A stretch of DNA of 64,000 nt from Syntrophales bacterium (GCA_035366835.1 DAOSIS010000015.1:23949-87948); one strand, 5' to 3'. Shown: positions 6,497-51,018, numbered from the stretch's first letter. Made by a program: numbers and translations. The notes: generated from the letters alone by a model not told the origin.

Positions 6497-7953
6497 GATT
6501 GCGAAGGGGGAAGGTCTCCCGGCGAAAAGCCGGCATCGCAGATTTCCCCGTAAAGGCGGTAGGTGTTGCGGCCCATCTTCTTGGCCTCGTACATGGCGAT
6601 GTCGGCCTTCTTCACGAGCGTGTCCACGTCCCTTCCGTCGAGGGGATACAGGGCCATGCCCACGCTGGTCGTCACCATGAGATCCCGGCCTTCCAGCCGG
6701 AAGGGCTGCTGAAAGGCCTGGATGATCTTCCCACCGAGAACATGGAGGTCCTCCAGCGCGTTGATCTCGGGCAGGATCATCATGAATTCGTCGCCGCCCA
6801 TCCGTGCGATGGTGTCGCTCTTGCGGACCAGCCCCGTCATCAGGGTAGCCGCCTCCTGCAGCAGGCGGTCTCCGAAGGTGTGGCCGAACGTGTCGTTGAT
6901 CTCCTTGAACTTGTCGAGGTCGAGCATCGTGATGGCGACCTTCCGGCCCGAGCGGTTCGCCTGGGCCAGCGCCATGCCGAGACGGTCGTTGAAGAGATAG
7001 CGGTTCGGCAGACCCGTCAGATGGTCGTGGTAGGCCATGTGGAGGATCGTCTCCTCGGCCCGTTTGACCTCGGTGATGTCGTGGAGGAGCGCGATCGTCC
7101 CCTCGAACTTCATGCTGACATCGAGCATCTTCTTGAGAAGGACCTGGTAGATGCGCCGCCCTTTCCGGCAGTCGAGCGCCTTCTCGAAACTCCGTTCCAG
7201 GGCATGGCTTTCGATTAGATCGTTCAACTCGCCGGCAAGCCAGGTCGGCGCGTCCTGAAGCGCCCGCCGTCCTCCGTAGTCGTCGTAGCCGGGCTTCTCG
7301 ATTCCGAAGAAGGATTCGATCGCCGCATGATTGGCGTTTTCGATCCTCCCGTCCCCGTTGAGAAACAGTACGGGGTTGTGGATGCTTTCAAAGATCGTGA
7401 TGTACTTGTTCTTTTCATTGGTGATGGCTCGGTTGGCTTCCTGCAGCTGCGCGACCGCGTCGAAGTCGGAAATGCTGAACCACTCCCGGAGAAACCCGAG
7501 TTCGAGCCGGTCGAAGAAGCGTTCGATGTACAGGAGGGAATAGCGTTCGCCGTCGGCGGGAAGGCCGGCCGCTTTCACCAGGTCCAGGTAGCTCTGCCGG
7601 TAATACTTCATCAGGCCCAGGAACATCTCGATCGTCACGCCGCGGGCGCGGTGGAGGCGGGCCTCACGGATGGCGAAGGTCGCCACGGTGTCGAGCGCGT
7701 AGTCCTCGTCCGGCCCCAGTTCGGGGACCGCCCCATTCCGCCCGAGCGATTCCCGCAGCGCGCCGGTGAGCCCGGCGATGGATATCCGCCAGTCCTCTTC
7801 GAGCGTGGACGTGTACTTGCTGTAGTCGCGCTGCCTCGCGTAGTCGAGGATCCGGCGCATCAGCCATTCCTCGCGGGAGCCGACCAGGCGGGACAGTTCT
7901 TCGGCGCGTTTCTTGTCGGAGTCTTCCATGACGTTTTCCGCGATCGGGTTCAA
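6493..7953 (-). CDS. PAS-containing diguanylate cyclase (GGDEF)
   Basis: 486 aa. Active site RMGGDEFMMILPE with an RxxD I-site (RKSD) just upstream. 4-nt overlap with ygiQ. Confidence 0.9.
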   Translation of the reverse strand: MNPIAENVMEDSDKKRAEELSRLVGSREEWLMRRILDYARQRDYSKYTSTLEEDWRISIAGLTGALRESLGRNGAVPELGPDEDYALDTVATFAIREARLHRARGVTIEMFLGLMKYYRQSYLDLVKAAGLPADGERYSLLYIERFFDRLELGFLREWFSISDFDAVAQLQEANRAITNEKNKYITIFESIHNPVLFLNGDGRIENANHAAIESFFGIEKPGYDDYGGRRALQDAPTWLAGELNDLIESHALERSFEKALDCRKGRRIYQVLLKKMLDVSMKFEGTIALLHDITEVKRAEETILHMAYHDHLTGLPNRYLFNDRLGMALAQANRSGRKVAITMLDLDKFKEINDTFGHTFGDRLLQEAATLMTGLVRKSDTIARMGGDEFMMILPEINALEDLHVLGGKIIQAFQQPFRLEGRDLMVTTSVGMALYPLDGRDVDTLVKKADIAMYEAKKMGRNTYRLYGEICDAGFSPGDLPPSQS

Positions 7954-26033: not shown

Positions 26034-26066
26034 TGAAACCCCTGTAAGATCGGATGGAAAACCTGT

Positions 26067-26104
26067 GCATCCCCCGCCCCCGCGTTTGCGGGAGCGGGGG
26101 ATGC
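26067..26104. terminator. long GC hairpin between convergent genes
   Basis: GCATCCCCCGC...GCGGGGGATGC, perfect 11-bp arms enclosing an inner CCCGC/GCGGG stem. Same arm core as the repeats at 42198 and 51086. Confidence 0.5.
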
Positions 26105-26189
26105 TTCGTCTTGTCCCGTCTCTTTTCACTGGATGAATCGCAACTGCCGGACTCCCTCCGCAGGCGGCCGGGCAATTCCCATGCGGGAA

Positions 26190-28691
26190 TCAACGGTCGC
26201 CGACCGTGTCGCCTGAGTTGTAGTTGACCCGGCAATTGCCGTTCCCGCCGCTGATTTCAATGTCGGCGTTCATGGCGCCCGTGTAGTTGATGGTGCCCTG
26301 CGCAGCGCCGCAACTGCCGTTGTTCGTGTTGTACCTCGTCACCGTTTCACCCGAACTCAGCCGATAGGTGTCGGTCGTAATTTCACTGCCGTTGTTTACC
26401 CGCCGGCAGCCGGACCCGGTGACCCTGAAGTCGCGCCTGCTGCCGGTATTGTTCCATACCCTGTATTCGGAGCAGCCGGTATATACGGTAGCCGAGCAGG
26501 TGCTGCTGCCGTTGGCATTGCTGACCGTGAGGGTGTAGGTCCGATCGCCCGCCGTCGTCTGGCTTCCCGAAGTGCAGGTGCCGCCGCTCGAATTCGAGAA
26601 GTTCGCGCAGACGCCGCCGGGCGACGGGCTCCACGATCCGTTGGCGGGACCATTCGCGATGGTCCAGGTGAGACTCGTCGTGCCGCCGTAGGGCACGATA
26701 TTCGGGCTGACGGCGAGGGTGCAGGTCGGCTGGGCCGCCTGGGTCACCGTGAAGGTCTGCCCGGCGATGATCATCGTACCGGTGCGCGGGGCGCCGGTGT
26801 TGTTGGTGGAGACGCTATAGCCGACCGTTCCCGTCCCGGACCCGCTGCTGCCGGAGGTGATGGAGATCCAGGAGTTGTTACTCGCCGCGGTCCAGGTGCA
26901 GCCGGTCACGGAGGTCACGGTGACCGTTCCGGTTCCGGCGTACCGGCCGAAGGACTGGCTGTAGGAGCTCAGCGTATAGACGCAGCCGTCGGCCTGATTG
27001 ACCGTGAAGGTCTGCCCGACGATGTTGATGTAGCCGGTCCTTGCAGGGCCGGTATTGGCGGCGACGGCATAGCCGATCGTCCCGTTTCCAGCACCGACGC
27101 TGCCGGAAGTAACGGTGATCCAATCGGAGAGGCTCGACGTCATCCAGGGGCAGGACGTCGTCGTGGTGGTGAGGTTGACGCTGCCCGATCCTCCCGCGGC
27201 GGTGGCCGACGCAGCTTCGGGCGTGATGGAATACGTACAGTCCCCCTGCGGAAAGAAGACGCGGAAATTGGTGAGTTCGATCTGCTGGGTGCTCGATCCG
27301 GTCGCCTCCGTGAAGCCGAAGAAGATCTTGCTGAAGTCGTTGTGATCCGCTTCCGAGAGGGATACGGTCTTGTTGATCTGGGCGGTCGTATCGGTGTAGG
27401 GGACGATGACGTCCTGGAAGCGGCTCATGGCCAGAGGATCGGCGAAACTGTCCTTGCGCGAGATCCATGCTTTGATTTCATAAGGGTAAGGCCCCGAGAG
27501 CGAACCGGGGCGGACGATCTCGATCCTGCAGACGTAAGGGCGTCGGCTTTCCATCCAGTTGCAAGAGCCGGAGGTCATGCAGGGTTCCGTCTGGCTCGCG
27601 GGCTGATAGTAGCCGCTGTCGCCCGTCCCCGCCGAATTCTGGGGATTCCCCCCGGAACCGCCCGCGCCGTGCTTGTTGTCGTCGTAGCTGTTCGGGGATC
27701 CTGTGCAGCCGGTGCCGGATGCCGTCCTGGCGCCCCAGAACATGAGCGCCACGTGGTTGTAGAAGGTATAGGTCGGGTTCCACCATGGACCGCTCTGTGT
27801 CCGCGGATCGTTCCTGCTGTCCGATTGGCAGATGTTGCCGGTGCCGGGGTTGGGGAAGGTATCGAACTCCAGGGCTATTTTCGGGGGCTTCAGGCCGAGG
27901 CCGTCCGCCGTGTCCCCAGCGCCGGCGTAGCCGATGAGCTCGCCCTCTCCCACGGCCCCGCCGGTGCGGTCCCGCGTGTTGTTTCGGTCAGGATCCGTGG
28001 CGCTGAGGACGGCAAAGGTGAAGCCGTCGGCGTAGGCGGTGCTGTCGGAGGAACGGTCCTCGTTCAGGAAGGTGAATTCGAAGTAGGCCCGTATGCCGAG
28101 GCCGAAGTTGCATATGCCGTCGGTGCAGTAGCCGACGATGCTGCTCCCCTGGTACCAGAGGGAACCGTAGCTGTCCTCGACGCCGCCGCCCATCGTGATC
28201 GTGTTCGTGTCCGGATCGGCCTGGACGGCGCTGCCGCCCGATTCCCCCGAGGCGATGGGCTCGCTGAAACTGGGGAATTCCGTGTCGGACTCGATGACCG
28301 GCGACGTCGGCGGGGGCGGTTCCGATGTGCCCGTCCCCGAACCCCACGTCACGGCGAGGTCATAGACGATCACCCGCCGCGCCTCCAGAAACGAACCGGC
28401 GTTGGCAACGCCCGTCGAGGTGATCCTGTAGTTCTCGATCTTGATCGTGAAGGCCGAATTGGCGTCGGGCATGTAGAACGTGGTTTCAGGATAATTCGCG
28501 AGCTGGATGGCCACGCCGTAGCGCACGCCCGCCCTGGCGAGATCGTAGGCGTTGTCGTTCCTGTTGGTCAGGAGCTCCCCGAAGGTCGACGACGCGGTGA
28601 TGCTGTAGATCCCCGCGCCGAGAACGCCCATGATCAGCATGGCGATGATGATCGTGATGAGGACGTCGCCTTTTCGTTTCCGCAAGCCCAT
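26190..28691 (-). CDS. pilus-associated adhesin: PilX-type N-terminal anchor, L-type (legume-like) lectin domain, tandem beta-repeats, Cys-rich C-terminus
   Basis: Internal Met (MGLRKRKGDVLITIIIAMLIMGVLGAGIYS) of ORF 26190..28832. Lectin motifs ADGFTFAVL, KIALEFDTFPN and FFGFTEATGSSTQQIELTNFRVFF. Two ~84-aa repeats with a C..W..W.(S/T).TSGS..G.GT.GY....N.G..RTG...I.GQTFTV.Q pattern. Confidence 0.8.
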   Translation of the reverse strand: MGLRKRKGDVLITIIIAMLIMGVLGAGIYSITASSTFGELLTNRNDNAYDLARAGVRYGVAIQLANYPETTFYMPDANSAFTIKIENYRITSTGVANAGSFLEARRVIVYDLAVTWGSGTGTSEPPPPTSPVIESDTEFPSFSEPIASGESGGSAVQADPDTNTITMGGGVEDSYGSLWYQGSSIVGYCTDGICNFGLGIRAYFEFTFLNEDRSSDSTAYADGFTFAVLSATDPDRNNTRDRTGGAVGEGELIGYAGAGDTADGLGLKPPKIALEFDTFPNPGTGNICQSDSRNDPRTQSGPWWNPTYTFYNHVALMFWGARTASGTGCTGSPNSYDDNKHGAGGSGGNPQNSAGTGDSGYYQPASQTEPCMTSGSCNWMESRRPYVCRIEIVRPGSLSGPYPYEIKAWISRKDSFADPLAMSRFQDVIVPYTDTTAQINKTVSLSEADHNDFSKIFFGFTEATGSSTQQIELTNFRVFFPQGDCTYSITPEAASATAAGGSGSVNLTTTTTSCPWMTSSLSDWITVTSGSVGAGNGTIGYAVAANTGPARTGYINIVGQTFTVNQADGCVYTLSSYSQSFGRYAGTGTVTVTSVTGCTWTAASNNSWISITSGSSGSGTGTVGYSVSTNNTGAPRTGTMIIAGQTFTVTQAAQPTCTLAVSPNIVPYGGTTSLTWTIANGPANGSWSPSPGGVCANFSNSSGGTCTSGSQTTAGDRTYTLTVSNANGSSTCSATVYTGCSEYRVWNNTGSRRDFRVTGSGCRRVNNGSEITTDTYRLSSGETVTRYNTNNGSCGAAQGTINYTGAMNADIEISGGNGNCRVNYNSGDTVGDR

Positions 28692-28701
28692 GGGTTCCCC
28701 G

Positions 28702-29205
28702 TTACCAGTACGACTCCAGGATGTTGACACGCTGGCTGAAGCTGGACGCGGAATTGTCCGCGCCGGTGACCGTAAGGGCGACATCGATCCGGCGGATGTT
28801 GGCCGCCGTTGCCGTCGCCGTCCCCGAACCATCGAAGTAGCTGAGGGTGAAGGCGGTGACGCGGTCGATCAGGGTCGTCCCGTTGATCTGCACCTTGTCG
28901 CCGGAAAGGGCGATGGCGACGGTGACGGGTCCCGTCCGCGTGCAGGTCACCGCGGAGGTTACCGACTGGGCCGGCGAGGGCGCGACGGCCGTCGCCGCGT
29001 GCAGTTCCTTCGCGATCCGCGTCAAGGCGACCTGGGCCTTCTGGAGCGTATCGGCGTTTTTCCGGGCAAAGACGTAGCCGCTCGCAATCTGCGTCAGGCC
29101 CATCCCCACGACGGCGACGAGAATGCCGATCAGCACGAGGCAAACGATCATCTCGACGAGCGTGAAGCCCTTATCGTCTGAGCGGGGTCCGTGCATCATG
29201 GCCAT
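28702..29205 (-). CDS. prepilin-type minor pilin/pseudopilin
   Basis: 167 aa. N-terminal methylation motif DKGFTLVEMIVCLVLIGIL. Confidence 0.8.
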   Translation of the reverse strand: MAMMHGPRSDDKGFTLVEMIVCLVLIGILVAVVGMGLTQIASGYVFARKNADTLQKAQVALTRIAKELHAATAVAPSPAQSVTSAVTCTRTGPVTVAIALSGDKVQINGTTLIDRVTAFTLSYFDGSGTATATAANIRRIDVALTVTGADNSASSFSQRVNILESYW

Positions 29206-29220
29206 CTAAACCCTCTCCCC

Positions 29221-29874
29221 TCACCGCAGGACGAACAAAGCCGTCCGCGTTTCGCCCGTCCGGTTCGACGCGTCCGACCGGTGGCCGACGACGACCTTCA
29301 GGTAGCGCCCGTAGGCCGGATCGCCCGTCGATCCATTGATGTTTTCTTCCCTGTTGCTTGCATCGAACTTGATGAACCGGTTCTGGAGAACGCGGTAGTT
29401 CCCGAAGGCGTTGCCGTAGTCCTGGTTCTCTCCGCCGCCGGGGGCGCCGATGGCGGTCTGCAGGTCCGTCAGCGTCGGTGCCGCGCCGTTGTTCTGCCAG
29501 GTGACGGTTCCGTCGCTGACCGTGGCCCCGGCGGTGATCGGCCACGCCGGTTCGTTCTCGCCGCTGGTTCCGCCGCCCGTGCAGCGGTAGTGGAATCCGT
29601 TTCGTATGCGGATCGAGGGAAGGATGAGCGTATCGGCGGCGTAGGACGTGCTCGGCCGCCAGTGCGGGATCCTGCTGTACAGCGTCGTCATGTTCTCCAG
29701 GACCTGGCTCAGGTTTGCCGATGCCTGGAGCCGGGCGATGGGGGTGGAACTCAGGGAGATGGACGATCCGAAATAAGGCGCCATCATGGCGGCGACGATG
29801 GCGAGCATGACGATGGCCACGAGGATTTCGACCAGCGTCAGTCCGGATTTCATGAGTCTATTCCGTGGCGTCAT
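29221..29874 (-). CDS. prepilin-type minor pilin/pseudopilin
   Basis: 217 aa. KSGLTLVEILVAIVMLAIV. Contains GENEPAWPITAGATVSDGTVTWQN. Confidence 0.8.
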   Translation of the reverse strand: MTPRNRLMKSGLTLVEILVAIVMLAIVAAMMAPYFGSSISLSSTPIARLQASANLSQVLENMTTLYSRIPHWRPSTSYAADTLILPSIRIRNGFHYRCTGGGTSGENEPAWPITAGATVSDGTVTWQNNGAAPTLTDLQTAIGAPGGGENQDYGNAFGNYRVLQNRFIKFDASNREENINGSTGDPAYGRYLKVVVGHRSDASNRTGETRTALFVLR

Positions 29875-30329
29875 GGCGTGATGAACCCCGTATTGGCGGC
29901 GAGGATGATCGTGGATGTGCCGCTGTCCCCGCTCAAGGTGATCGACACATCGGAAGGCCCCGGGCTGCCCCAGGAATCGAAGCTGACCGTCACGGGCGTG
30001 GTCACCGTCGTGCCGGACGGGAAGGACCGCGTGCTGGAATTTTCAGTGGGGAGGTTGATCGCGGCGGCCGCGCCGTTGCGCTGAAGGGTGTAGGACCCGC
30101 CGGCGAATGCGATTCCCCAGGTTGCCGTATCGTCGTTCAGGGCCTTCATCTGGGCAAATCTGAGATGCGTCTTGACGATATCGGTCTGCACGACAAGGTC
30201 CTGCTGCGTCGTCAGGACGCGGCTGACGGCAACGGCGGCGATTACGCCGATGACCAGCAGAACGACGATCACCTCGACGAGGGTGAAGCCCCGGTCAGCA
30301 GTGTCTGTTGAGGCGTGATGGTTCATCAC
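29871..30329 (-). CDS. prepilin-type minor pilin (GspH/FimU-like size)
   Basis: 152 aa. DRGFTLVEVIVVLLVIGVI. 4-nt overlap with the next gene. Confidence 0.8.
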   Translation of the reverse strand: MMNHHASTDTADRGFTLVEVIVVLLVIGVIAAVAVSRVLTTQQDLVVQTDIVKTHLRFAQMKALNDDTATWGIAFAGGSYTLQRNGAAAAINLPTENSSTRSFPSGTTVTTPVTVSFDSWGSPGPSDVSITLSGDSGTSTIILAANTGFITP

Positions 30330-30354
30330 TTCTCAGGTCCTTATGTCACGCGGA

Positions 30355-30382
30355 CTATAAGGTGAAGCGGCCCGCTTGTCAA
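30355..30382 (-). promoter_or_regulatory. near-consensus sigma70 promoter for the minor-pilin operon
   Basis: Minus strand reads TTGACA (30382-30377), a 17-nt spacer, then TATAGT (30360-30355), about 25 nt upstream of ATG 30329. Confidence 0.45.
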
Positions 30383-30413: not shown

Positions 30414-30737
30414 TCATCCGATCGTGGCCCGGATCACGGCGAAGCCTTCCCGTTCCATCTGTGCGGCGACGCGGTCCTGCAACTCCCTTCCCGGTGTGAG
30501 CGCGACCATGTAGCCGCCCTTCCCGGCGTAGACCCCTTCCAGGACTTCCGGATAGGGTTTTTCCAGAGACACAGGTGGCGAACCTCGCGGCCGTCGCGTT
30601 CGAAGGCCCTGGTGAGGATGGCGGCGGACCTGAGGCCGTCCGGGTCGTTGTGATGAAAGAGGGTGCGCCGTCCGGTCGGGCCATGCCCGCATCTCGCCGA
30701 TCGCCTTTCCCATCGCATGAACGAGATCATCGATCAT
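30414..30737 (-). pseudogene. small DHH-like ORF with an apparent compensating double frameshift
   Basis: The N-terminus (MIDDLVHAMGKAIGEMRAW) and C-terminus (VSLEKPYPEVLEGVYAGKGGYMVALTPGRELQDRVAAQMEREGFAVIRATIG) share a frame. The protein-like middle (RRTLFHHNDPDGLRSAAILTRAFERDGREVRHL) is in another frame. ATGA overlap with the GDPD stop. Confidence 0.3.
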
Positions 30738-31621: not shown

Positions 31622-31816
31622 CTACAGCTGATGCAAGAGACGGACCGTTGCGGGGTTTCGGTGGCGTCGAAAGGGCCGTACCACCCGGGTGTCGGCGCCT
31701 AGGATTCCTGAAGACGACGCGTTTTTCCATGGGGCTCCGCCGGGATCAACCGTGTGCCCGCCGGCTCCGGCTAGCGGATACCGGGAAAATCATCAGGAGA
31801 CTGAGGTCAACGGATT

Positions 31817-31959: not shown

Positions 31960-32120
31960 TCAATCCGTCATCTACAAAAAATGTAGGTAAATGACAAAAA
32001 TTAGTAGAATTCGTTTTCCAAGGAGTACGGTCGAGTTGAGGATCGGAGGGTATTCAAGACAAAAAACGTTGTAAATCAACATGTTAATCATTATATTTTG
32101 GCATTTGCTTTCCAGGATAC

Positions 32121-32136
32121 TGGCATGTTATGTGCT
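32121..32136 (+). promoter_or_regulatory. candidate sigma54 (-24/-12) promoter for the pilin genes
   Basis: TGGCATGTTATGTGCT has GG-N10-GC spacing and is close to TGGCAC-N5-TTGC. It lies in an AT-rich region about 83 nt upstream of ATG 32219. Confidence 0.55.
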
Positions 32137-32218
32137 AAAGCCAAATTCTGAAAATGGAGGAGTAGTCCATTATCGACCATCCTGCTCCGTCAGGAAAAAA
32201 CTCTGAGGAGGAAATTGT

Positions 32219-32617
32219 ATGAGAACAAATCAGAAAGGCTTTACATTGATCGAGATCATCGCCGTCTTGATCATTCTTGGCATTCTGGCCGCAGTAGCCG
32301 TGCCGAGATTCATGGATCTGACGGCAGACGCCAGGAGGCAGGCCGCAAACGCAGCGGTTGCCGAAGGGATCGCGAGGGCAAATATGCTAATAGCTAGGAA
32401 CATTTTGTCAAGCGGTGGAACGATACCTACTGCGGCATGCGTAGTTGAGGGCCTGAACGCGAGTTATCAGAATGCGGGTGATTTCTCAATCTCCTATGCA
32501 GGTGCGGGCGGCGGTGGAACTGCGGGAACCATCACGGTTTCCGGATGGGGCGTCTCCGGCAACGTAAGTGGCGGGGATACCGTTGAAAAAGCGTTTGACA
32601 TGCCGACCTCCAATTAA
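32219..32617 (+). CDS. type IV pilin / pseudopilin (prepilin N-terminal methylation domain)
   Basis: 132 aa. MRTNQKGFTLIEIIAVLIILGILAAVAVPRF. SD GAGGAGG upstream. Confidence 0.85.
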   Translation: MRTNQKGFTLIEIIAVLIILGILAAVAVPRFMDLTADARRQAANAAVAEGIARANMLIARNILSSGGTIPTAACVVEGLNASYQNAGDFSISYAGAGGGGTAGTITVSGWGVSGNVSGGDTVEKAFDMPTSN

Positions 32618-32658
32618 TTTAATCTACACGCGTCCACCCATCTGAGGGGGGTGGTGAA

Positions 32659-33063
32659 ATGGCGTTTCGAACGAGGAGGGCGTCCCCTGGCCCGAGAGGC
32701 GAGGGTGGGTTTACATTAATTGAGATTATAAGCGTCCTCGTCATAATTGGAGTTCTTGCGGCTATCGCAGTTCCAAGATACATGGACCTCATCGACTACG
32801 CGAGGAACAGGGCCGCCTACGCGGCGCTTGCCGAGGGTATGGCCCGTGTGAACATGATCGCCGCCAAGCGGATTCTTCAAACCGGGAGCATTCCGAGCGC
32901 GGCGAGCGTTGTCGCCGATTCGGCATTGAACACGGATGCAGGAGATTTTTCCCTTAGTTTCGCAGCAAACGGCGAAGGCAGCGTCAATATCACTGCTTCC
33001 GGCACGGCGGGAAACGTGGACGGCGGAAGCGTGACAGGCAATGTCGGATTGCCCGTGTTGTAG
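32659..33063 (+). CDS. second type IV pilin paralogue
   Basis: 134 aa. GEGGFTLIEIISVLVIIGVLAAIAVPRY. Collinear with the first pilin (GDFS.S.A..G.G). Unusually long leader peptide if the start is correct. Confidence 0.8.
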   Translation: MAFRTRRASPGPRGEGGFTLIEIISVLVIIGVLAAIAVPRYMDLIDYARNRAAYAALAEGMARVNMIAAKRILQTGSIPSAASVVADSALNTDAGDFSLSFAANGEGSVNITASGTAGNVDGGSVTGNVGLPVL

Positions 33064-33100
33064 TGTTAACGGGAAACGGACAGATCGTGGTTTAGAACCA

Positions 33101-33146
33101 AGACAGGACATCGCCACCGATTAATAATTGTGGCGATGTCCTGTCT
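33101..33146. terminator. 17-bp perfect inverted repeat between convergent pilin and TPR genes
   Basis: AGACAGGACATCGCCAC - 12 nt - GTGGCGATGTCCTGTCT. The loop holds the stop codon of the minus-strand gene and the right arm encodes its last residues. Confidence 0.55.
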
Positions 33147-35115
33147 TCTTATGATGGATCCCTCTTTTTTTTTGTTCTGTATTGCGTCCTGCAGCCACTA
33201 ACGAGACGGTCTGACGGAGATTTTCACGTGCTTTTTCATAGCCGGGGTTGAGCATCAGCGCTGCCGAGAAGTAATACGCCGCTTTTTCCCAATCGGCGGT
33301 CTTTTGCATGGCGATGCCTGCATTGTTGTATGCCGCTACGAAATCCGGCTGCAACGCAATTGCGGCGACGAGGAATTGGATGGCATCCCGAGGGCGGTCC
33401 AAAAGGTTCAGGACTCTGCCGATATTGTTGTTGGTGTCCGCCCTCTTGGGCGACAGTACCAATGCCCGATGGAAATGGGCCAGAGCACGGTTGAGGAGGC
33501 CGACTCCCGCGTAGGCAACCCCTAAAATATTATGTTTCCACGAATTGTCGTCTGTCAACATTTCCGCGGCTGAATAGGCAGCGATCGCCCGTTTCGTTTC
33601 TCCCATTTTCACCAGGAGGTCTCCCTTTCCGATATAGGCATAGGAGTTTTTCCTGTCACGGAGAAGCGCATCGTTGAAATGGACCAGCACTTCTTCCAGC
33701 GGTGCGCCCTTTTTTTCAAGGAGATTTGCCAGGCTGGCATGCACGGAGGAGTAACCCGGCCAGATGGCGAGGGACTTGAGGATTTCCCTTTCCGCTGCTG
33801 CAAGATTCCCTTCCACCAGTAGAACATCGCCCAAAATCCGATGGGCGAGCCAGTTCTTTGCGGTGACCTCCGTCGCATGCTGAAAGAGGGTCTTGGTGTT
33901 CCTCCAATATTCCACTTGCCGCCAGGTGACCACGGACAGGATGATGAGAATTGACGCCGTCACAGCGGTCGCGAGCATCCATTGACGGGGGGCATCACTG
34001 AAGGCCGAGACACTCCAGACAATTGCAATGAAGACGCCGATAGAAGGCAGATACATGTATCGATCCGCCATGGACTGTAACCCTACCTGAACAATACCGA
34101 TTACGGGCAGCAGTGTGATCAGAAACCACAGCCAGCCGAACAGCACATAGGGGTGACGGCGGACGAGCAGGAAGGCGGCAAGCGAAACAAGGAGTAGGAA
34201 AACGCCTGCGCCGATAACACGCGGCGACAGAAGGGGGAAAGAAACATAAGGATAGAAAATGGCCAGACTGTCCGGCCAGAAAGTCTTTTCCATGTATCCC
34301 TGGTAGGATACCGCGGCATTCAAAATCCTCGCAGACAGCGGAATTCCGCTCAGGGTTGCCATCGCCCCGGCCTTTGCCTGGACGATCATCGTCACGATGC
34401 CTGAAAATAGGGAAAGGGAAAAAAACGGTATTTTTTCCATGACGACGGAGCGGTGCAATCTCAAATTCTGGAAACGCATCCAATCGGAGTATTGGTCTGG
34501 CGCCTCGATGCGCTTCAGAGGCCAGAAATCGAGGAGGAGAAAGACGATCGGCAGCGTGACGAGCATCGGTTTGGACAGGAGACCGAGGGCGAAGAGGAAA
34601 AGCGTTGCGGTGTAGCGAAGGGGGTGAGGTTTCCTTGCATAGCGTACATAGGAAAGGAGCGCCAGGATGCCGAAGAATCCCGATAGAACATCCTTCCTTT
34701 CCGAAATCCACGCCACCGACTCCACGTGGAGCGGATGGATACCGAAGAGCGCCGCGACCACGGCGCTTTCCCATCGCCTTCCCGTGGTTTCCAACAGCAA
34801 AAGAAACAGCAGCAGAGTATTGGCGATGTGAAAAAAGAGACTTGTCAGGTGATGTCCCACCGGATGCACGCCGTACATCTGGCAATCGAACATATGGGAA
34901 ATCATCGTAAGGGGATGCCAGTTGGCGGCAGCTTGGGTGGTGAACGCCCGGATCAGGCCTTCTTTCGTCAACCCCGCCTGAACGTGGTCATTCTGCGTGA
35001 CATATAACTGGTCGTCGTATCCGACGAAGTCGTTCTTGACCACGCCGCCGAAGGCGGTCAGGACCAGAAGGATCAGAACAAGACCGATCCAGCGGTCCTT
35101 CATGGAGATCGTCAT
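33121..35115 (-). CDS. TMTC/PMT_2-like polytopic membrane glycosyltransferase (GT-C type) with C-terminal TPR repeats
   Basis: Internal Met (MTISMKDRWIGLV...) of ORF 33121..35373. NDFVGYDDQLYVTQNDHV and FGIHPLHVESVAWISERKDVLSG resemble the TMTC/DUF1736 signature. The C-terminal half is TPR-like. Confidence 0.65.
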   Translation of the reverse strand: MTISMKDRWIGLVLILLVLTAFGGVVKNDFVGYDDQLYVTQNDHVQAGLTKEGLIRAFTTQAAANWHPLTMISHMFDCQMYGVHPVGHHLTSLFFHIANTLLLFLLLLETTGRRWESAVVAALFGIHPLHVESVAWISERKDVLSGFFGILALLSYVRYARKPHPLRYTATLFLFALGLLSKPMLVTLPIVFLLLDFWPLKRIEAPDQYSDWMRFQNLRLHRSVVMEKIPFFSLSLFSGIVTMIVQAKAGAMATLSGIPLSARILNAAVSYQGYMEKTFWPDSLAIFYPYVSFPLLSPRVIGAGVFLLLVSLAAFLLVRRHPYVLFGWLWFLITLLPVIGIVQVGLQSMADRYMYLPSIGVFIAIVWSVSAFSDAPRQWMLATAVTASILIILSVVTWRQVEYWRNTKTLFQHATEVTAKNWLAHRILGDVLLVEGNLAAAEREILKSLAIWPGYSSVHASLANLLEKKGAPLEEVLVHFNDALLRDRKNSYAYIGKGDLLVKMGETKRAIAAYSAAEMLTDDNSWKHNILGVAYAGVGLLNRALAHFHRALVLSPKRADTNNNIGRVLNLLDRPRDAIQFLVAAIALQPDFVAAYNNAGIAMQKTADWEKAAYYFSAALMLNPGYEKARENLRQTVSLVAAGRNTEQKKRGIHHKKTGHRHNY

Positions 35116-35366
35116 AAGGGGAGTCTCCCTGGCGGTTGCCGGAGACTTTATAGCGTACTCCTGCCGATTCCGCAAAATATTTGCGGAGCCCCAGGTAAGA
35201 GTTATCGTTGTTGATGGTTGCTCATCTGCCGTCGTCTGCCCTGACATTGCGTCCTGCCTTTCCTGAGAAGCAGCGCATGATTTTTCTTTTCTGAAATGTG
35301 CGGCGTTCACGGACAGGGCGCGAAAAAATAGTTTACGCGGGCACCCCTCAGCGGCTAATAAGGAGC

Positions 35367-37289
35367 ATGGCATTGAAAGAGCAAACCATCTCGCCGATCC
35401 TGATCGCGGCGGCGCTTATCGGGAGCCTTTTTTTCCAGGGACGAAATCTTTATGTCTTTCTTGCGGTGCAGGCGGCCCTGGTCTGCGCCTTGACGTATCG
35501 ACTGATGAGGGCACAGGCGGAAACCGTCCTCCTCAAGATCGATTTCATGTCCGGGGCCGTTCTTCTCTTCTGGGTATGGCTTGCCGTCAGCGCTTTTCTC
35601 TCCCGCGTTCCCTACGTCAGTGGGTTCATCTTCTGGTGGATCGGGGTCCTGCCGATGGTCTATCTGATCCATGTCCTGTCGCCGGAGACCGAAGATTCCG
35701 GGTCGGCGACTGTGATGGTTCTGCTCGCCGTTGGATCGGGGCTGGCTGCATGGGCTCTGTGCCAATTTATTGTCTGGCAGGATCCTCCGCGGGGACCTTT
35801 TATCTATCGTAATCTGCTGGCGGCGTTTCTCGGCATGCTGGCATTGATCGTGTCTGCCCGTTTCCTCATGAGAGACGAGAACGGGGGAACCCGTGAATTC
35901 TGGTTCCTGGCCGGGATCTTTCTGATGGTCCTGATCGTGGGTTTGATCCAGAGTCGCGGAGTCCTGCTCTGTTTTTCCATCGGTGCCTTCGCCCTCCTCT
36001 CTTTCTCTCGTCCGTTCGTGAAGAAAAGAAAGGATATCCTGACGATCATCGCAGTCTATGCGGTCGCCCTGGCCCTGGCCCAGGTCTCCTCGTCGGGGGA
36101 GATGGGTGCGAGAATGGCTACTCTCCAGGATCCCTATCAGGCTGGGGGAACCCGCTTCGTCATCTGGGAGGGGTCGTGGGAATTGTGGCAGCAGTCCCCT
36201 TGGTACGGCAACGGCATCGGGACGTACTGGCTGGCCTATCCGGCCTATCGGCAGGCGGACGATACCAACGCGGGCTTCTACGTCCACAACGACTACCTGC
36301 AGATTCTGATCGAAAGCGGCTGGCCGGCCCTGCTCCTGCTTTGCTGCATTTTGCTTGCGATCCTTTTTCTGTTCGTCAAGACATACAGGAGCGAATCGAC
36401 CGGCCCTTCTGCAAAAATCGAAGCTGCGGGCCTGTTTGCCGCGCTGCTGTCGATTTTTCTGCACAGCTTGCTCGATTTCAATCTCTATACGGTGCCGACC
36501 ATGATCCTGGCGGGGCTGGCCATGGGACGCCTCCGCTCGCTCTGTCATGACCCGCTTCCGTCCGTATCCATGAAAATTTCTTTAGGCCGCTGGCTCCGGC
36601 CGACTGTTTTTCGCTGCTGCCTGCTGTTTTTGGGACTCCTTCCGGGGATCTATTTCGTCACGGTTGGCGTTTCCTACTATTACCTCCAACGTGGCGAGGC
36701 GTTGATCGAGAAGGCTCAATTGAAAGAGGCCCTTGGGTCGCTGCGGATTTCCGAAGCCCTGTGGTCGAACCAGGACCGGCCGAAATATCTGCAGGCCAAC
36801 ATCTATCAGTTGACGCTGCAGGAAAATCCGCAAATGGATCTCGCGGTGCGTAGACAAGTATATGACGATGCACAGATGAAGTTGCAGCAGGCCGAAAGTT
36901 TGAATCCCTGGCGGCCGGAGATTCATGCCGTCCGCGGTCAACTGTACCGACAGAACCGCGACCTCGCCGGCCCGGACTGGTATGAAAAGGCCGTGCGGTC
37001 CTTTCGTCACGCGCTGGCTATCGACCCGCGATGCTACGATGCGCGGGTCTTCTACGCAAGGATGCTCTTGGAGACGGGCGATGCTCCAAAGGCCGCCGAT
37101 GTCTTGAAAGCGGGATTGAAATACTGGCATACGCCGGATGCCCGGATGATTTCCTATTATCGACTGACAGCGTTCGTTTGTCGGCAACAGGGAGATCATG
37201 CCTCGGCCACGGAAGCGGAAAAGAAGATGGCGGCCGTTATCGCGGCCTACCAAAGAGCCGCGCGGGAGAAATGGGAAAGGCCCTTTTGA
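35367..37289 (+). CDS. O-antigen ligase (Wzy_C) domain membrane protein with C-terminal TPR repeats
   Basis: Internal Met (MALKEQTISP..., SD AAGGAG) of ORF 35298..37289. NAGFYVHNDYLQILIESGWPALLLL is the Wzy_C/WaaL/PglL-type loop motif. TPR-like tail. Confidence 0.75.
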   Translation: MALKEQTISPILIAAALIGSLFFQGRNLYVFLAVQAALVCALTYRLMRAQAETVLLKIDFMSGAVLLFWVWLAVSAFLSRVPYVSGFIFWWIGVLPMVYLIHVLSPETEDSGSATVMVLLAVGSGLAAWALCQFIVWQDPPRGPFIYRNLLAAFLGMLALIVSARFLMRDENGGTREFWFLAGIFLMVLIVGLIQSRGVLLCFSIGAFALLSFSRPFVKKRKDILTIIAVYAVALALAQVSSSGEMGARMATLQDPYQAGGTRFVIWEGSWELWQQSPWYGNGIGTYWLAYPAYRQADDTNAGFYVHNDYLQILIESGWPALLLLCCILLAILFLFVKTYRSESTGPSAKIEAAGLFAALLSIFLHSLLDFNLYTVPTMILAGLAMGRLRSLCHDPLPSVSMKISLGRWLRPTVFRCCLLFLGLLPGIYFVTVGVSYYYLQRGEALIEKAQLKEALGSLRISEALWSNQDRPKYLQANIYQLTLQENPQMDLAVRRQVYDDAQMKLQQAESLNPWRPEIHAVRGQLYRQNRDLAGPDWYEKAVRSFRHALAIDPRCYDARVFYARMLLETGDAPKAADVLKAGLKYWHTPDARMISYYRLTAFVCRQQGDHASATEAEKKMAAVIAAYQRAAREKWERPF

Positions 37290-47703: not shown

Positions 47704-49149
47704 ATGAGCGAAAGACTTTCTGCCTTCTTCTCCTTCCCAGGACTGATCCTCGTCGCATTGCTGGTCTTGACGCTCCCGCCGGCGCCAGCCTGCGTCCAGG
47801 CGCAGCCTCCGTCCGAAACCGGCAGCGCGGGCGGAGAGGTGGACTTCAGGACCGCGAACAAGGAGGCCATCGAGAAGCTGCGCAAGCTGCCGCCGGAAAA
47901 GATCGCCAGCCTCGACGAAAAACTCGCCGAGGCCCTGACCCTCTATTACGACGGGAAGTTCGCCCAGGCCCTGCCCATCTTCAACATGATCTCCGCCGAC
48001 GTGGAGACCATGGACATCATGTGGTGGCTGGGAACGAGCGCGATGAACGTCGGGGAGACGCGCCTCGCCGTGCAGAAATTCCAGCAGATGCTGGCGATCG
48101 ATCCCTCGCTGCACCGCGTCCGTCTCGAACTGGCCGCCGCCTATTTCCAGTTGAAACAGTACGAGGACGCCCGCCGTGAGGCGGAGGCGGTCAAGAATGC
48201 CCGGCCGCCGGAAGCGGTGGTCCGGAACATCGACAAACTCCTCGCGGCGATCGAGGAGAGCACCAAGACCCTCTACTGGAACGTGCGCTTCTCTCAGGGG
48301 ATTCAGTGGGACAGCAACATTTCCAGCGGCCCCGACCAGAAGGTGCTCAATGTGACGGGAGGAACCCTGACCCTCAACAACGACACGGCGGAGATCGGTG
48401 ACTGGGCGTCCATCACGAACTTCTCGGGGAACGTCCTGTACGACTTCGGCCGGAAGCAGGGCTTCATGTGGAATACGACGGCCGATCTCTACAACCAGTT
48501 CTACTTCCACAACGGCAAGTACAACTACAGCCTTGCGGATGTCTCGACAGGGCTCTGGTGGGTCGGACCCAGGGATATCCTGAAACTTCCCCTGGGTATG
48601 GCCAAGCAGGAGTTCGGCAGCGACCCGCTGTCCACCATCTATCACGTCAAGCCGAGCTGGGAGCACTACTTCACCCCCGGCTTCAGCGTCAAGGCCCTGT
48701 ACGCGTACAGCAACGAGCGCTTCATCGATGTGGAATACGATGATCAGGACAATGTCACGAACCGCTTCGAAATTACGCCGAACTTCTATTTCCTGAACCG
48801 GCGGCACATCGTTTCGATCAGCGGCGGCTACGAAAGATCCGCCGCGGACGCCCGGCGCTTCACCTACACGGCCCCCTACGGCGCCGTCTCCTACTATACG
48901 CGCTTTCCCACCAACACGGACCTTTTCCTGCGTTACCAGTATTCGAACCGGGATTACAAGGCGGCGCCCCTGCTCTACTCGGAAGATCGTGTCGACCGGC
49001 GCCACGCCTTTTCCATCGCCCTGAGCCAGGAGTTTCTGAAGCACTTCTTCACCTCTCTGGCCTTCAATTACATCGACAACCACTCGAATCTCGAACTGTA
49101 CGCTTTCCGAAAGCAGACCTACACACTCAGCTTCGGATTCTATTTCTGA
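47704..49149 (+). CDS. Slam-like outer-membrane protein (N-terminal TPR plus DUF560-type beta-barrel; type XI secretion-like)
   Basis: 481 aa. Signal peptide. TPR-like segment (LTLYYDGKFAQALPIF...AAAYFQLKQYEDA). Alternating-pattern barrel ending in the OMP C-terminus YTLSFGFYF. Confidence 0.7.
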   Translation: MSERLSAFFSFPGLILVALLVLTLPPAPACVQAQPPSETGSAGGEVDFRTANKEAIEKLRKLPPEKIASLDEKLAEALTLYYDGKFAQALPIFNMISADVETMDIMWWLGTSAMNVGETRLAVQKFQQMLAIDPSLHRVRLELAAAYFQLKQYEDARREAEAVKNARPPEAVVRNIDKLLAAIEESTKTLYWNVRFSQGIQWDSNISSGPDQKVLNVTGGTLTLNNDTAEIGDWASITNFSGNVLYDFGRKQGFMWNTTADLYNQFYFHNGKYNYSLADVSTGLWWVGPRDILKLPLGMAKQEFGSDPLSTIYHVKPSWEHYFTPGFSVKALYAYSNERFIDVEYDDQDNVTNRFEITPNFYFLNRRHIVSISGGYERSAADARRFTYTAPYGAVSYYTRFPTNTDLFLRYQYSNRDYKAAPLLYSEDRVDRRHAFSIALSQEFLKHFFTSLAFNYIDNHSNLELYAFRKQTYTLSFGFYF

Positions 49150-49167
49150 TTTTTCCGGGAGGTCACC

Positions 49168-51018
49168 ATGAACCGACGCATGCCCGTCCTGATCGTTCTC
49201 GCCGCAAGCCTGGCACTTCTTTGCTGTGCATGGCAGGTTGCCGACACTTTTGCCGCCGAGAAGAGCAGAGGCCATGCCGTTCCGGCGAGCCTCCTTCCCC
49301 GGGAGCTGAAGAACGTCGACGTCAAGGACCATTTCATCCCCGCAGGCACGAAGGCGGTCGGGGTGATCCAGTCCGTCATCGCCCATGTCGTCGTGGCCCG
49401 CAGGGATCTCGGCCAGGCCTACTATGCGGCCGACGGGGACAGGCTCTTTGAACAGGATGTGGTCTTCACATTGAAGGACTCCAAATGCCGCATCAAGCTC
49501 GCCAACGACGACATCATCACCGTGGGCGACAACAGCCGCCTGGCCGTCAACGAGATGACGGGCGACCGGAAGACCCCGGAAAAGAAATCGGTTCTGGAAC
49601 TGGCGCGCGGCAAGGCGATGTTCTATGCCATCCGCCTCCTCAACCACAAGAGCGCGACCATGAACGTGGTGAGCCCGACGGCCGTTACCGGCGTCCGGGG
49701 AACGAAATTCGGCATCGAAGTCACCGTGACGAACGAGACGGCGGCCGCCGCGCAGCCGATTCTTCTGGCCGACGCCTCCGCCGACTGGGGGCGACATCTC
49801 ATCCTCGCGCAGGCCGCGCCGTTGCCGGGAGTCACGACGGTCGTCCACGGATTTGAAGGCACCGTGGTGGTCACATCGACCGTCGACGGCAGGACGCAGA
49901 CCGTCGGCGCCGGGCAGACCTTATCGACCACACCGCAGGGCATCGGGGCGCTGATCCCGACGCCTCCGCAGGTTTCCCAGAGCTTCCAGTCCGCCACGAA
50001 TGTCCCGCCGCCGCAAGGGGCCGGAGGTGCCGGCGGCACGAGCGGCGGTCAGACCGGCGGCCAGAGCCAGGGCACGGCCGGCGGCACCGGGACGACGACC
50101 GCGACCACGACAACCTCCACCGAAACATCGCCGCCGCTGGTGGATACTTCGAGCGTGACGCAGACGCAGAGCACCAGCCAGACCGAACAGGCGGCAACGC
50201 AGACGGACCCCGTGACGGATCCGAAGACCAATGCCTCGGGCGGCCATACGGGCTATTTCGCGGGGATCCTCACCAACCTTTCTAAGGCGGGGATACAGGA
50301 CGTCTATGTCAGCCGGAACCGCTACGACGGCGACAGCAGCGTCTGGGGCAGGGGGCTCCTGAGCGCCCTGGATTATCTCCGTGTCGAGGGCGGCGGAAAG
50401 TTCGGGAACCCCACCCTGAAATGGGCCGAGCTCTTCGGTGCGACAAAATCTTCCGGGCCGCTCACGGTTCCCGTATCCTGCACAATCATGGGTACCTATA
50501 CCGACGGGTACGGCGGGCAGTACCTGGAATGGGGCTATGCCACGATTCCGTCCTTTGCGGTCGGCACGGAGAACTACGCCGTGGACAACCGGGCCTACTA
50601 CATCTTCGGCCAGAGCACGACCTCCGCCGACCTCATGAGCCTTACGGGAACGGCGATCTATTCGGGGGACGCCTTCGGGACCTACTGGACCTCCTCGGGC
50701 GGCGTGAACATGTCCGGCAGCTTCTCCTGTGACGTCAATTTCGCGACCAAGGCCGTGTCCGGCTTCAACCTCGGCGTATCGGGCTCCAATGTCTCCGCCG
50801 GGATCTCCGGCGCAAGCGGAACGATCGGCAGCGACGCGCACTTCCAGCTGACCGGCGGGACCTGGAGCCTCAACGGCACGACCCCCGCGAACACCAACGC
50901 CGGCGGCTCCCTCTACGGGCCGTCCGGCAGCTACATCGGCGGCCCCTGGGGAATGTCCACGAACGATGCGGCCGCCGCAGGCATCTACAAGGGGATAAAA
51001 AGCGGCGGGCCCTACTGA
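49168..51018 (+). CDS. exported FecR-domain protein with T/Q/G-rich linker and TbpB-like C-terminal beta-barrel (putative Slam cargo)
   Basis: 616 aa. FecR-like block (...ITVGDNSRLAVNEM...ARGKAMFYA...VVSPTAVTGVRGTKFGIEV). C-terminal pattern YSGDAFGTYW...GSFSCDVNFATKAVSGFNLGV...GGSLYGPSGSYIGGPWGM...AAGIYKGIK is collinear with TbpB/fHbp-type barrels. Confidence 0.7.
   Translation: MNRRMPVLIVLAASLALLCCAWQVADTFAAEKSRGHAVPASLLPRELKNVDVKDHFIPAGTKAVGVIQSVIAHVVVARRDLGQAYYAADGDRLFEQDVVFTLKDSKCRIKLANDDIITVGDNSRLAVNEMTGDRKTPEKKSVLELARGKAMFYAIRLLNHKSATMNVVSPTAVTGVRGTKFGIEVTVTNETAAAAQPILLADASADWGRHLILAQAAPLPGVTTVVHGFEGTVVVTSTVDGRTQTVGAGQTLSTTPQGIGALIPTPPQVSQSFQSATNVPPPQGAGGAGGTSGGQTGGQSQGTAGGTGTTTATTTTSTETSPPLVDTSSVTQTQSTSQTEQAATQTDPVTDPKTNASGGHTGYFAGILTNLSKAGIQDVYVSRNRYDGDSSVWGRGLLSALDYLRVEGGGKFGNPTLKWAELFGATKSSGPLTVPVSCTIMGTYTDGYGGQYLEWGYATIPSFAVGTENYAVDNRAYYIFGQSTTSADLMSLTGTAIYSGDAFGTYWTSSGGVNMSGSFSCDVNFATKAVSGFNLGVSGSNVSAGISGASGTIGSDAHFQLTGGTWSLNGTTPANTNAGGSLYGPSGSYIGGPWGMSTNDAAAAGIYKGIKSGGPY

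Follow-up and report, generated by a model that had tools for sequence, protein, structure and literature searches.

Type IV pili gain binding specificity through modular minor pilins and tip adhesins, of which examples are known from a handful of pathogens and model organisms. CofB and TcpB of type IVb pili are tip-located minor pilins, of which CofB carries an H-type lectin domain. For Streptococcus sanguinis it is established that modular minor pilins at the pilus tip bear lectins (PMC9934059), and CpaL is a pilin-like protein in the K position with an adhesin domain (PMC13533445). The N-terminal domains of PilY1 vary, and the protein docks on PilX via a C-terminal strand (PMC11046646, PMC13533445); minor pilins of the K type lack the glutamate at position +5 (Glu5) and are hence placed at the apex of the filament (PMC13533445, PMC9934059). 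Here we analyse an operon of four genes, g1-g4, in a stretch of 64,000 nucleotides (nt) from a Syntrophales bacterium (GCA_035366835.1, DAOSIS010000015.1:23949-87948), which we call the window and whose positions are counted from its first letter. The source organism is a sludge-dwelling, deltaproteobacterium-like bacterium. We consider that g1-g4 probably form an H-I-J-K minor-pilin set in which the K subunit, g4, is fused to a lectin, with the pilus tip serving as a glycan-binding adhesin. The genes belong to a previously uncharacterised family of anaerobic, mostly syntrophic Desulfobacterota, whose capping subunit would carry a legume-type lectin.

Organization of the operon

The operon lies on the minus strand, where a near-consensus promoter is followed by three prepilin genes and then by a gene for a protein of 833 amino acids (aa). 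The features of the operon and of the domains of g2 and g4 are as follows.

30382-30354 (-): sigma-70-type promoter TTGACA-17-TATAGT, 5' of the operon, with 11 of 12 positions matching
29871-30329 (-): g1, prepilin of 152 aa with a GFTLVE N-terminus, passing N_methyl and TIGR02532; first in the conserved four-gene order
29221-29874 (-): g2, prepilin of 217 aa with a GLTLVE N-terminus, passing N_methyl and TIGR02532; carries an inserted module
29494-29664 (-): g2 aa 71-127, the inserted module of ~57 aa, putatively CBM5/12-like and of the phage receptor-binding-protein type
28702-29205 (-): g3, prepilin of 167 aa with a GFTLVE N-terminus, passing N_methyl and TIGR02532; its third place is conserved across loci
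26190-28691 (-): g4, 833 aa, a putative K-type module followed by lectin, two BACON repeats, an immunoglobulin-like (Ig-like) domain and a C-terminal domain
28347-28691 (-): g4 aa 1-115, pilin-like module with basic leader, Gly8, hydrophobic helix, Thr at +5 and four beta-strands
27249-28259 (-): g4 aa ~145-481, lectin fold of the L type (legume-type) whose long loops are specific to the family, from Foldseek, profile and conserved residues
26985-27239 (-): g4 aa 485-569, BACON repeat 1 (Pfam PF13004)
26724-26984 (-): g4 aa 570-656, BACON repeat 2 (Pfam PF13004, best stretch 599-652)
26475-26723 (-): g4 aa 657-739, beta-sandwich (Ig-like) domain, model strands 656-738
26193-26474 (-): g4 aa 740-833, conserved C-terminal domain with four Cys (alignment A3), ending in ...NCRVNYNSGDTVGDR

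An earlier note on this DNA, made from the sequence alone, had named the promoter and three prepilin-type genes with GFTLVE-class N-termini, and both are borne out, the former by its near-complete match and the latter by Pfam N_methyl and TIGR02532. Sites of the form TTGACA-N17-TATAAT with at most one mismatch occur twice in the 64 kb, where shuffled sequences lead one to expect 0.00. The same note described the genes as tightly packed or overlapping; the packing holds, and g1 and g2 overlap by 4 nt, with g2 and g3 lying 15 nt apart, whereas g3 and g4 do not overlap but are separated by a 10-nt spacer before the ATG of g4, which contains a Shine-Dalgarno-like motif, GGGGA. An open reading frame (ORF) of 880 aa beginning at 28832 was also considered for g4 and rejected, since the homologues start with MGLRK or MRLKN, the Shine-Dalgarno-like motif is present and the stop codon of g3 lies 10 nt upstream, all of which place the start at 28691. 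The GC content at third codon positions is 0.82-0.88 in g1-g4 (0.85 in g4), as in the rest of the genome.

The position of g1, together with weak matches to hidden Markov models (HMMs), suggests an H-type (FimU/GspH-like) minor pilin; it scores 35 bits against the GspH model, under the cut-off. We read g2 as an I-type minor pilin in the PilV/GspI position and g3, by its place, as a J-type minor pilin in the PilW/GspJ position. All subtype matches of g1-g3 (GspH, GspG, ComGF and GspJ) are under the cut-offs, and g3 has weak matches to ComGF and GspJ only.

A legume-type lectin fold in g4

Modelling and sequence comparison support a legume-type lectin fold in g4, and its Ca/Mn and sugar site seems intact. 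The earlier note had pointed to legume-lectin hallmarks in its core, namely ADGFTFAVL (aa 221), IALEFDTF (aa 272), FFGFTEATG (aa 457) and ELTNFRVFF (aa 472), and structural matches, a lectin-core profile and the metal- and sugar-site residues of its homologues all agree with that reading. We found 91 homologues of g4, and an AlphaFold2 model built from 77 homologues (mean predicted local distance difference test score, pLDDT, 86.7; predicted TM-score 0.66) shows a large beta domain up to residue ~481 followed by four beta-sandwich modules. A Pro/Ser/Thr-rich linker joins the pilin module to the lectin, with a low-confidence stretch of the model at ~117-123 within GSGTGTSEPPPPTSPV. The absence of any lectin fold from models and HMMs, which had been named in advance as a refutation, is not what we see, as the AlphaFold fold superposes on legume lectins. 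Foldseek against the PDB returned the legume lectins 3zvx, 9c4i, 5eyx, 5t50, 1q8q and 2gn3 with target-normalised TM-scores of 0.50-0.58, E-values of 1e-8 to 1e-7 and a probability of 1.00; the matched lectins, from Platypodium, Centrolobium, Bauhinia and Pterocarpus, carry bound mannosides. Foldseek also returned the L-type lectin adhesin YwfG (7yl4) among its top matches, and the other class of matches consists of multi-Ig proteins, which we attribute to the tandem sandwiches in g4. A GH16-type glycosidase was considered as well and rejected, since the sole GH16 match in the PDB falls on its BACON-like N-terminal part and not on the lectin region.

The lectin-core profile (alignment A4), which draws on 41 loci, gave two matches at E <= 10 among PDB sequences, both of them legume lectins, the best being 2fmd_A. 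The profile segments gdGFTFav, gellgYaG, mAvEFDTYPNt and fGFTeATG align in register with ADALTFFI, RLLGLFG, VSVEFDTYPNT and VGFSATTG of 2fmd_A. Searches of PDB sequences with full-length g4, with the full-family profile and with the distant homologue P0089 found no lectin. The putative site residues are well conserved among the 77 homologues: D222 is present in 74, E275 in 64 (with Gln in another 12), D277 in 76, Tyr or Phe at 279 in 72, N281 in 71, D295 in 77 and H313 in 63. D295 and H313 we take to belong to the metal site by likeness to concanavalin A. We infer that g4 may bind glycans, with a specificity that is likewise putative.

The pilin-like N-terminus of g4

The N-terminus of g4 reads MGLRKRKG|DVLITIIIAMLIMGVLG, that is, a basic leader, Gly at -1 and Thr instead of Glu at +5. 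In the family alignment the Gly (Gly8) is kept in 57 of the 68 ungapped sequences, and the +5 position is Thr in 39 sequences, Glu being outside the five commonest residues; the +1 residue of g4 is Asp, which is unusual. By the secondary structure of the AlphaFold2 model, a helix at residues 7-62 is followed by four strands at 66-111, which is a pilin layout. With Gly at -1, no Glu at +5 and a place as fourth gene after prepilins of the H, I and J types, the N-terminus appears to be of the K/PilX/GspK type, and g4, lacking Glu5, should therefore be the apical subunit.

The earlier note had taken this N-terminus to be PilX-like rather than a cleavable prepilin. The likeness to PilX stands: in tblastn the module matches the stand-alone PilX-like genes of related loci in which pilin and lectin are split (see below) with E-values of 1e-10 to 1e-15, and the stand-alone PilX-like protein of one of them, locus L005, matches PilX_N at E = 1.3e-4 (22.4 bits, cut-off 25.5). 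The non-cleavable part is not supported, given the conserved Gly at -1 and the basic leader; these make cleavage by prepilin peptidase plausible, as in the K-type minor pilins that are cleaved, and g4 would presumably be processed in this way.

Fused and split relatives

A genome scan yielded 69 loci, one per species, almost all in Desulfobacterota, spread over Syntrophales/Smithella, Syntrophorhabdus, Desulfobacterales and Desulfovibrionaceae and including one cultured strain, Salidesulfovibrio brasiliensis JCM 12178 (locus L043). Most loci have 2-4 prepilin genes upstream of the lectin gene. At least 40 loci resemble the window in that a pilin-like N-terminus lacking Glu5 precedes the lectin in one fused protein. 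In another 10-11 loci, among them L005, L013, L020 and L024, three prepilin genes are followed by a stand-alone PilX-like gene (315-351 aa) and then by a lectin protein with a Sec signal, which is the arrangement of pilV-W-X-Y1 and mshD-O-P-Q (PMC13533445). Since the Sec-secreted lectin gene directly follows the PilX-like gene, the lectin protein takes the position of the PilY1/MshQ adhesin. The idea that the lectin fusion occupies the tip-adhesin position, raised before these loci were known, thus gains support from the split relatives, although the tip location is deduced. A true prepilin with Glu5 fused to the lectin is found in locus L036 and in the Thermodesulfobacterium proteins P0090 and P0091. 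Together, the two kinds of arrangement, split and fused, offer a natural test of the recent model that ties the adhesin to the K subunit.

In three loci of Desulfovibrionaceae/Desulfolutivibrio metagenome-assembled genomes (L031, L035 and L036), two copies of the lectin core lie ~1.7 kb apart; they may be tandem paralogues or parts of one two-lectin protein. The genome of locus L010 has a second H-I-J-K set (L010 12685-15705, minus strand) besides its lectin locus, and the C-terminal part of the K-type protein of that set (573 aa) is not related to the lectin, nor does Pfam match it, which suggests that the tip modules are interchangeable.

The C-terminal half of g4 and the inserted module of g2

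Two BACON-like repeats of ~84 aa had been claimed downstream of the lectin, and they are true BACON: Pfam BACON (PF13004) matches g4 in two stretches with 51.2 bits (cut-off 25), and the two repeats are identical at 39 of 84 residues (z = 17). A third, degenerate repeat, proposed for aa 657-739, was not retained, as its similarity to repeats 1 and 2 is not significant (z below 1.5); the segment is a beta-sandwich in the model only. The supposed Cys-rich tail counts 4 Cys among its 94 aa and is instead a conserved domain.

No Pfam model exists for this C-terminal domain, and a word-index search with it was unproductive, giving 1 match. An exhaustive profile search, by contrast, succeeded, with 142 cluster representatives at E <= 1e-3, of which we examined 90 new full-length ones (at least 200 aa) for the context of the domain. 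It stands at the extreme C-terminus in 85 of the 90, and 61 have a pilin-like N-terminus, 49 of these without the lectin. The N-terminus is a canonical GFTLIE in 33 of the domain-bearing proteins (P0154-P0283), and the lectin-free proteins that we sampled carry N_methyl and He_PIG Ig domains. This distribution indicates a general module of modular pilin-like proteins that is not specific to the lectin, and it defines a conserved domain common to more than 100 clusters of pilin-like proteins.

The closest relative of the window, locus L001, has ~84% DNA identity to it across the operon. Within the 3' end of g4 the similarity ends at 26738 and resumes at 26038 (window 26039-26738 versus L001 11939-12654), and L001 carries a different, BACON-like ending instead of the last ~185 aa of g4 (Ig-like and C-terminal domains). 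This difference looks like a cassette swap.

The inserted module of g2 follows the pattern W..P.T.Y...P...NG..Y.C..GGTSG..EP.WP...G.TV.DG.V.W. It has no match in Pfam, and g2 aa 71-127 match PHROG 20658 ('head decoration') at E = 2e-10. In the alignment of 54 g2 homologues (A2) the module is present once or twice in each sequence, the duplicated form being found in homologues of 280-310 aa. In the g2 model (mean pLDDT 82), Foldseek matches the module to the cyanophage Pam1 tailspike 7eea over 63 columns (root-mean-square deviation 1.8 A, 27% identity) and also to a Vibrio chitin deacetylase; these PDB matches are weak, covering ~60 residues at E-values of 0.014-0.1, with none at E <= 0.001. 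Against BFVD, 15 matches reach E <= 1e-3, and they are to proteins of phage baseplates, tail fibres and tailspikes. The PHROG, Foldseek and BFVD matches together support the earlier suggestion of a phage-fibre-like carbohydrate-binding motif in the middle pilin.

Proposed mechanism and the filament served

In the mechanism that we propose, the H-I-J-K set would first prime the assembly of a filament of type IV and afterwards cap it, and g4, as the apical subunit, would display the lectin at the pilus tip via the Pro/Ser/Thr-rich linker. A single polypeptide, g4, would thus do the work of PilX plus PilY1 or of MshP plus MshQ, and g2, as the I subunit, would add a second, small carbohydrate-binding-like module near the tip. 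Both the tip location of g4 and the filament that the set serves are what we infer here. We also put forward, tentatively and with considerable doubt, a picture in which the apical minor pilin and the adhesin in the PilY1 position form a natural fusion/fission series, the C-terminal domain docks on the pilin by beta-strand addition in cis or in trans, of the kind proposed for GspK, CpaL and PilY1, and so licenses assembly of the tip complex, and the lectin of syntrophic Desulfobacterota in sludge recognises surface glycans of particular partner cells (e.g. methanogens) or of the biofilm matrix. The lectin family is a candidate for cell-cell or cell-matrix recognition in methanogenic consortia.

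As to the machinery, an assembly ATPase and platform protein lie within 10 kb of the operon in 18 of the related loci. In locus L003 the genes run PilM_2, PilO-like, a small gene, secretin, an AAA_22 ATPase, MshEN/T2SSE, T2SSF and two pilins, and this block is convergent with a TPR gene, two prepilin genes and the lectin gene. The L003 secretin passes PilQ (317 bits against a cut-off of 284) and fails GspD (208 against 351) and MshL (98 against 250), the ATPase passes the model of the MshE-type cyclic di-GMP (c-di-GMP) motif (48.9 bits against 38), and the genes are arranged as in msh I-J-K-L-M-E-G-pilins. Linkage of this kind, to a PilQ-passing secretin and an MshE-type ATPase, makes a type IVa/MSHA-like pilus likelier than a type II secretion system (T2SS). 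The filament served by the operon of the window is, on this comparative ground, most likely a type IVa/MSHA-like pilus whose machinery would be encoded elsewhere in the genome. The earlier statement that no PilY1-like gene is present holds within the window, as judged by Pfam on 42 ORFs, and g4 itself has no match to the PilY1 beta-propeller (PF05567), its model consisting of beta-sandwich modules.

Weighing of alternative explanations

Several results weigh against g4 as the lectin-bearing K subunit of a minor-pilin set. Neither PilX_N (PF14341) nor the GspK models match g4 at E <= 1, nor does PilX_N match its first 130 aa, so that the PilX_N check suggested by the earlier note came out negative. 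The suggested check against lectin HMMs was likewise negative on g4 itself, with no match to PF00139 or PF18483 at E <= 1, though distant family members do match Pfam Lectin_legB (P0089 with 90.8 bits and P0091 with 26.3 bits, cut-off 26.3); Pfam, NCBIfam and PHROGs gave nothing useful on g4 besides BACON, and the sequence link between the lectin-core profile and 2fmd_A is weak (E = 0.019). Conserved loops that plant lectins lack add ~100 residues to the lectin domain, and D337, D338, N339 and H341 within these insertions are near-invariant or invariant; the conservation of such family-specific insertions implies that the ligand may differ from those of plant lectins. The subtypes of g1-g3 are assigned mainly from gene order, and a Pfam search of 42 ORFs with high third-position GC, spread over the 64-kb window, found no pilB, pilC, pilM-Q, gsp, pilD, pilY1 or secretin gene. 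The RNA contigs over the operon (see below) come from one run and are of low depth.

We think it unlikely that g4 is a tip subunit whose lectin fold does not bind sugar, with the fold binding a protein or mineral surface or being a mere scaffold, and with adhesion coming from the other modules. Concanavalin-like folds do serve many functions, g4 stays under every lectin HMM threshold, large conserved family-specific loops surround the canonical site, and BACON is without proven glycan binding. Yet D222, E275, D277, N281, D295 and H313 are the most conserved positions of the family and are in register with legume lectin, the best structural matches are lectins with bound sugar, and g2 carries a second carbohydrate-binding-like module. 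It appears less probable still that g1-g4 form the GspH-I-J-K pseudopilus tip of a T2SS-like system, the lectin/BACON part binding glycosylated cargo or the envelope in the periplasm. Such a reading could draw on the NCBIfam scores of g1-g3 and of the neighbouring pilins, where GspG/GspH do as well as pilins and every score stays under its cut-off, on the L003 platform protein scoring best on GspF, the ATPase scoring about equally on PilB and GspE and the PilO-like protein having a weak GspM match, and on GspK being a K subunit with a large extra domain in a T2SS that lacks PilY1 (PMC13533445). The L003 secretin, on the other hand, passes PilQ and not GspD, it is accompanied by PilM_2 and PilO rather than GspL and GspC, and both the MshE-type c-di-GMP motif and the msh-like gene order point away from secretion; moreover, the tip module of ~700 aa with its flexible linker, and the split form that is secreted through Sec and encoded where PilY1 would be, are more in keeping with an exposed adhesin. 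That the operon might belong to a T2SS with a separate function had been raised beforehand as a possible refutation, and the clusters of PilM, PilO, PilQ-type secretin, ATPase and platform genes beside related loci argue against it.

Very improbable, in our estimate, is that g4 is no filament subunit at all, its helix being an inner-membrane or uncleaved signal anchor of a glycan-binding protein, periplasmic or on the surface, that is co-transcribed with pilins by chance. The missing match to any PilX or GspK model, the unusual Asp at +1 and the missing machinery in the window would be expected in that case, but dozens of genomes keep the gene in its place behind three prepilin genes, its N-terminal module shares homology with the stand-alone PilX-like genes and shows a helix and then a four-stranded sheet, as pilins do, and more than 60 clusters of proteins with pilin-type N-termini also bear the C-terminal domain. 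The reading that we consider probable is the H-I-J-K set with a lectin-bearing apical subunit.

Neighbourhood, expression and habitat

Two further pilin genes lie on the plus strand upstream of the operon.

32219-32617 (+): pilin gene, 132 aa, passing N_methyl; candidate major pilin of the same filament
32595-32623 (+): second near-consensus promoter, TTGACA-17-TTTAAT, where the first pilin gene ends, ahead of the second
32659-33063 (+): second pilin gene, 134 aa

Pilins like that at 32219-32617 adjoin the machinery in L003 and the operon in L001. There is weak evidence that the operon is transcribed: in one metatranscriptome, contigs cover parts of g1-g4 and of the pilin genes, and not the flanking genes, one of them spanning 32397-33109. 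The stretch occurs in metagenomes of activated sludge, digesters and bioreactors.

The two pilin genes and a 750-aa protein lie in a part of the window (32000-36000) with a GC content of 0.53-0.55, compared with ~0.64 elsewhere. The 750-aa protein (33121-35373, minus strand) has C-terminal TPR repeats and, as read from its sequence alone, a multi-pass membrane N-terminal half; NCBIfam gave generic TPR matches only. Similar TPR membrane proteins adjoin the lectin operon in ~16 related loci, and such a protein may act in the biogenesis of the pilus or the modification of pilins. Compared with L001, the window is without ~1.8 kb comprising most of a 404-aa gene and a GHMP kinase, of which out-of-frame remnants persist at 30414-30730 upstream of the promoter, and without a block of ~2.6 kb for an ABC sugar transporter, at 31705/31706. 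Farther away, a Slam-like outer-membrane protein (SlipAM plus TPR_Slam) and then a 616-aa FecR-domain protein are encoded at 47704-51018 on the plus strand, with an ABC transporter upstream. A GGDEF diguanylate cyclase at 6493-7953 (minus strand) may be relevant because the pilus-linked ATPase in relatives has the MshE-type c-di-GMP motif.

Comparison with known systems

Full-text literature searches found no description of this lectin/pilin family. What appears new is a K-type carrier, the combination of a legume-type lectin with BACON, and the occurrence in a diderm, mostly syntrophic lineage, as well as the split and fused forms side by side and the common C-terminal domain.

CofB and TcpB resemble g4 as minor pilins with a lectin-type domain at the tip, but they differ in having a homotrimeric tip, no H-I-J-K set and another class of lectin. 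With legume lectins and Lactococcus YwfG, g4 shares the fold and the motifs ADG, EFDT(Y/F)PN and GF(T/S)xxTG, whereas the identity is 11-15%, ~100 extra loop residues are present and a pilin is attached. GspK/XcpX, which caps the I-J-K complex, is like g4 of the K type without Glu5 and has an extra domain; this domain is an alpha-domain of ~180 aa inside the pilin sheet (PMC13533445), in contrast to the C-terminal string of beta-sandwiches in g4. Caulobacter CpaL likewise combines an N-terminal pilin-like module, a large middle part and a C-terminal element in one polypeptide (PMC12607857, PMC13533445), but it belongs to a T4c/Tad system and has neither lectin nor BACON. PilX/PilK with PilY1/PilC, and MshP with MshQ, show the same order of an H-I-J-K set followed by the adhesin, which the split relatives match (PMC13533445, PMC11046646); unlike PilY1, however, g4 has no beta-propeller, and in the window, as in at least 40 genomes, K subunit and adhesin are one fused protein. 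PilC of S. sanguinis, like g4, unites a pilin module with lectin-fold and Ig-like modules and is proposed to bind glycans as part of a tip complex of minor pilins (PMC9934059). However, it comes from a monoderm, acts with PilA and PilB and without a full H-I-J-K set, and its lectin is detectable by sequence as SSF49899, whereas g4 would be a K-type subunit without Glu5 in a diderm, with a legume-type lectin with long insertions, BACON repeats and the conserved C-terminal domain.

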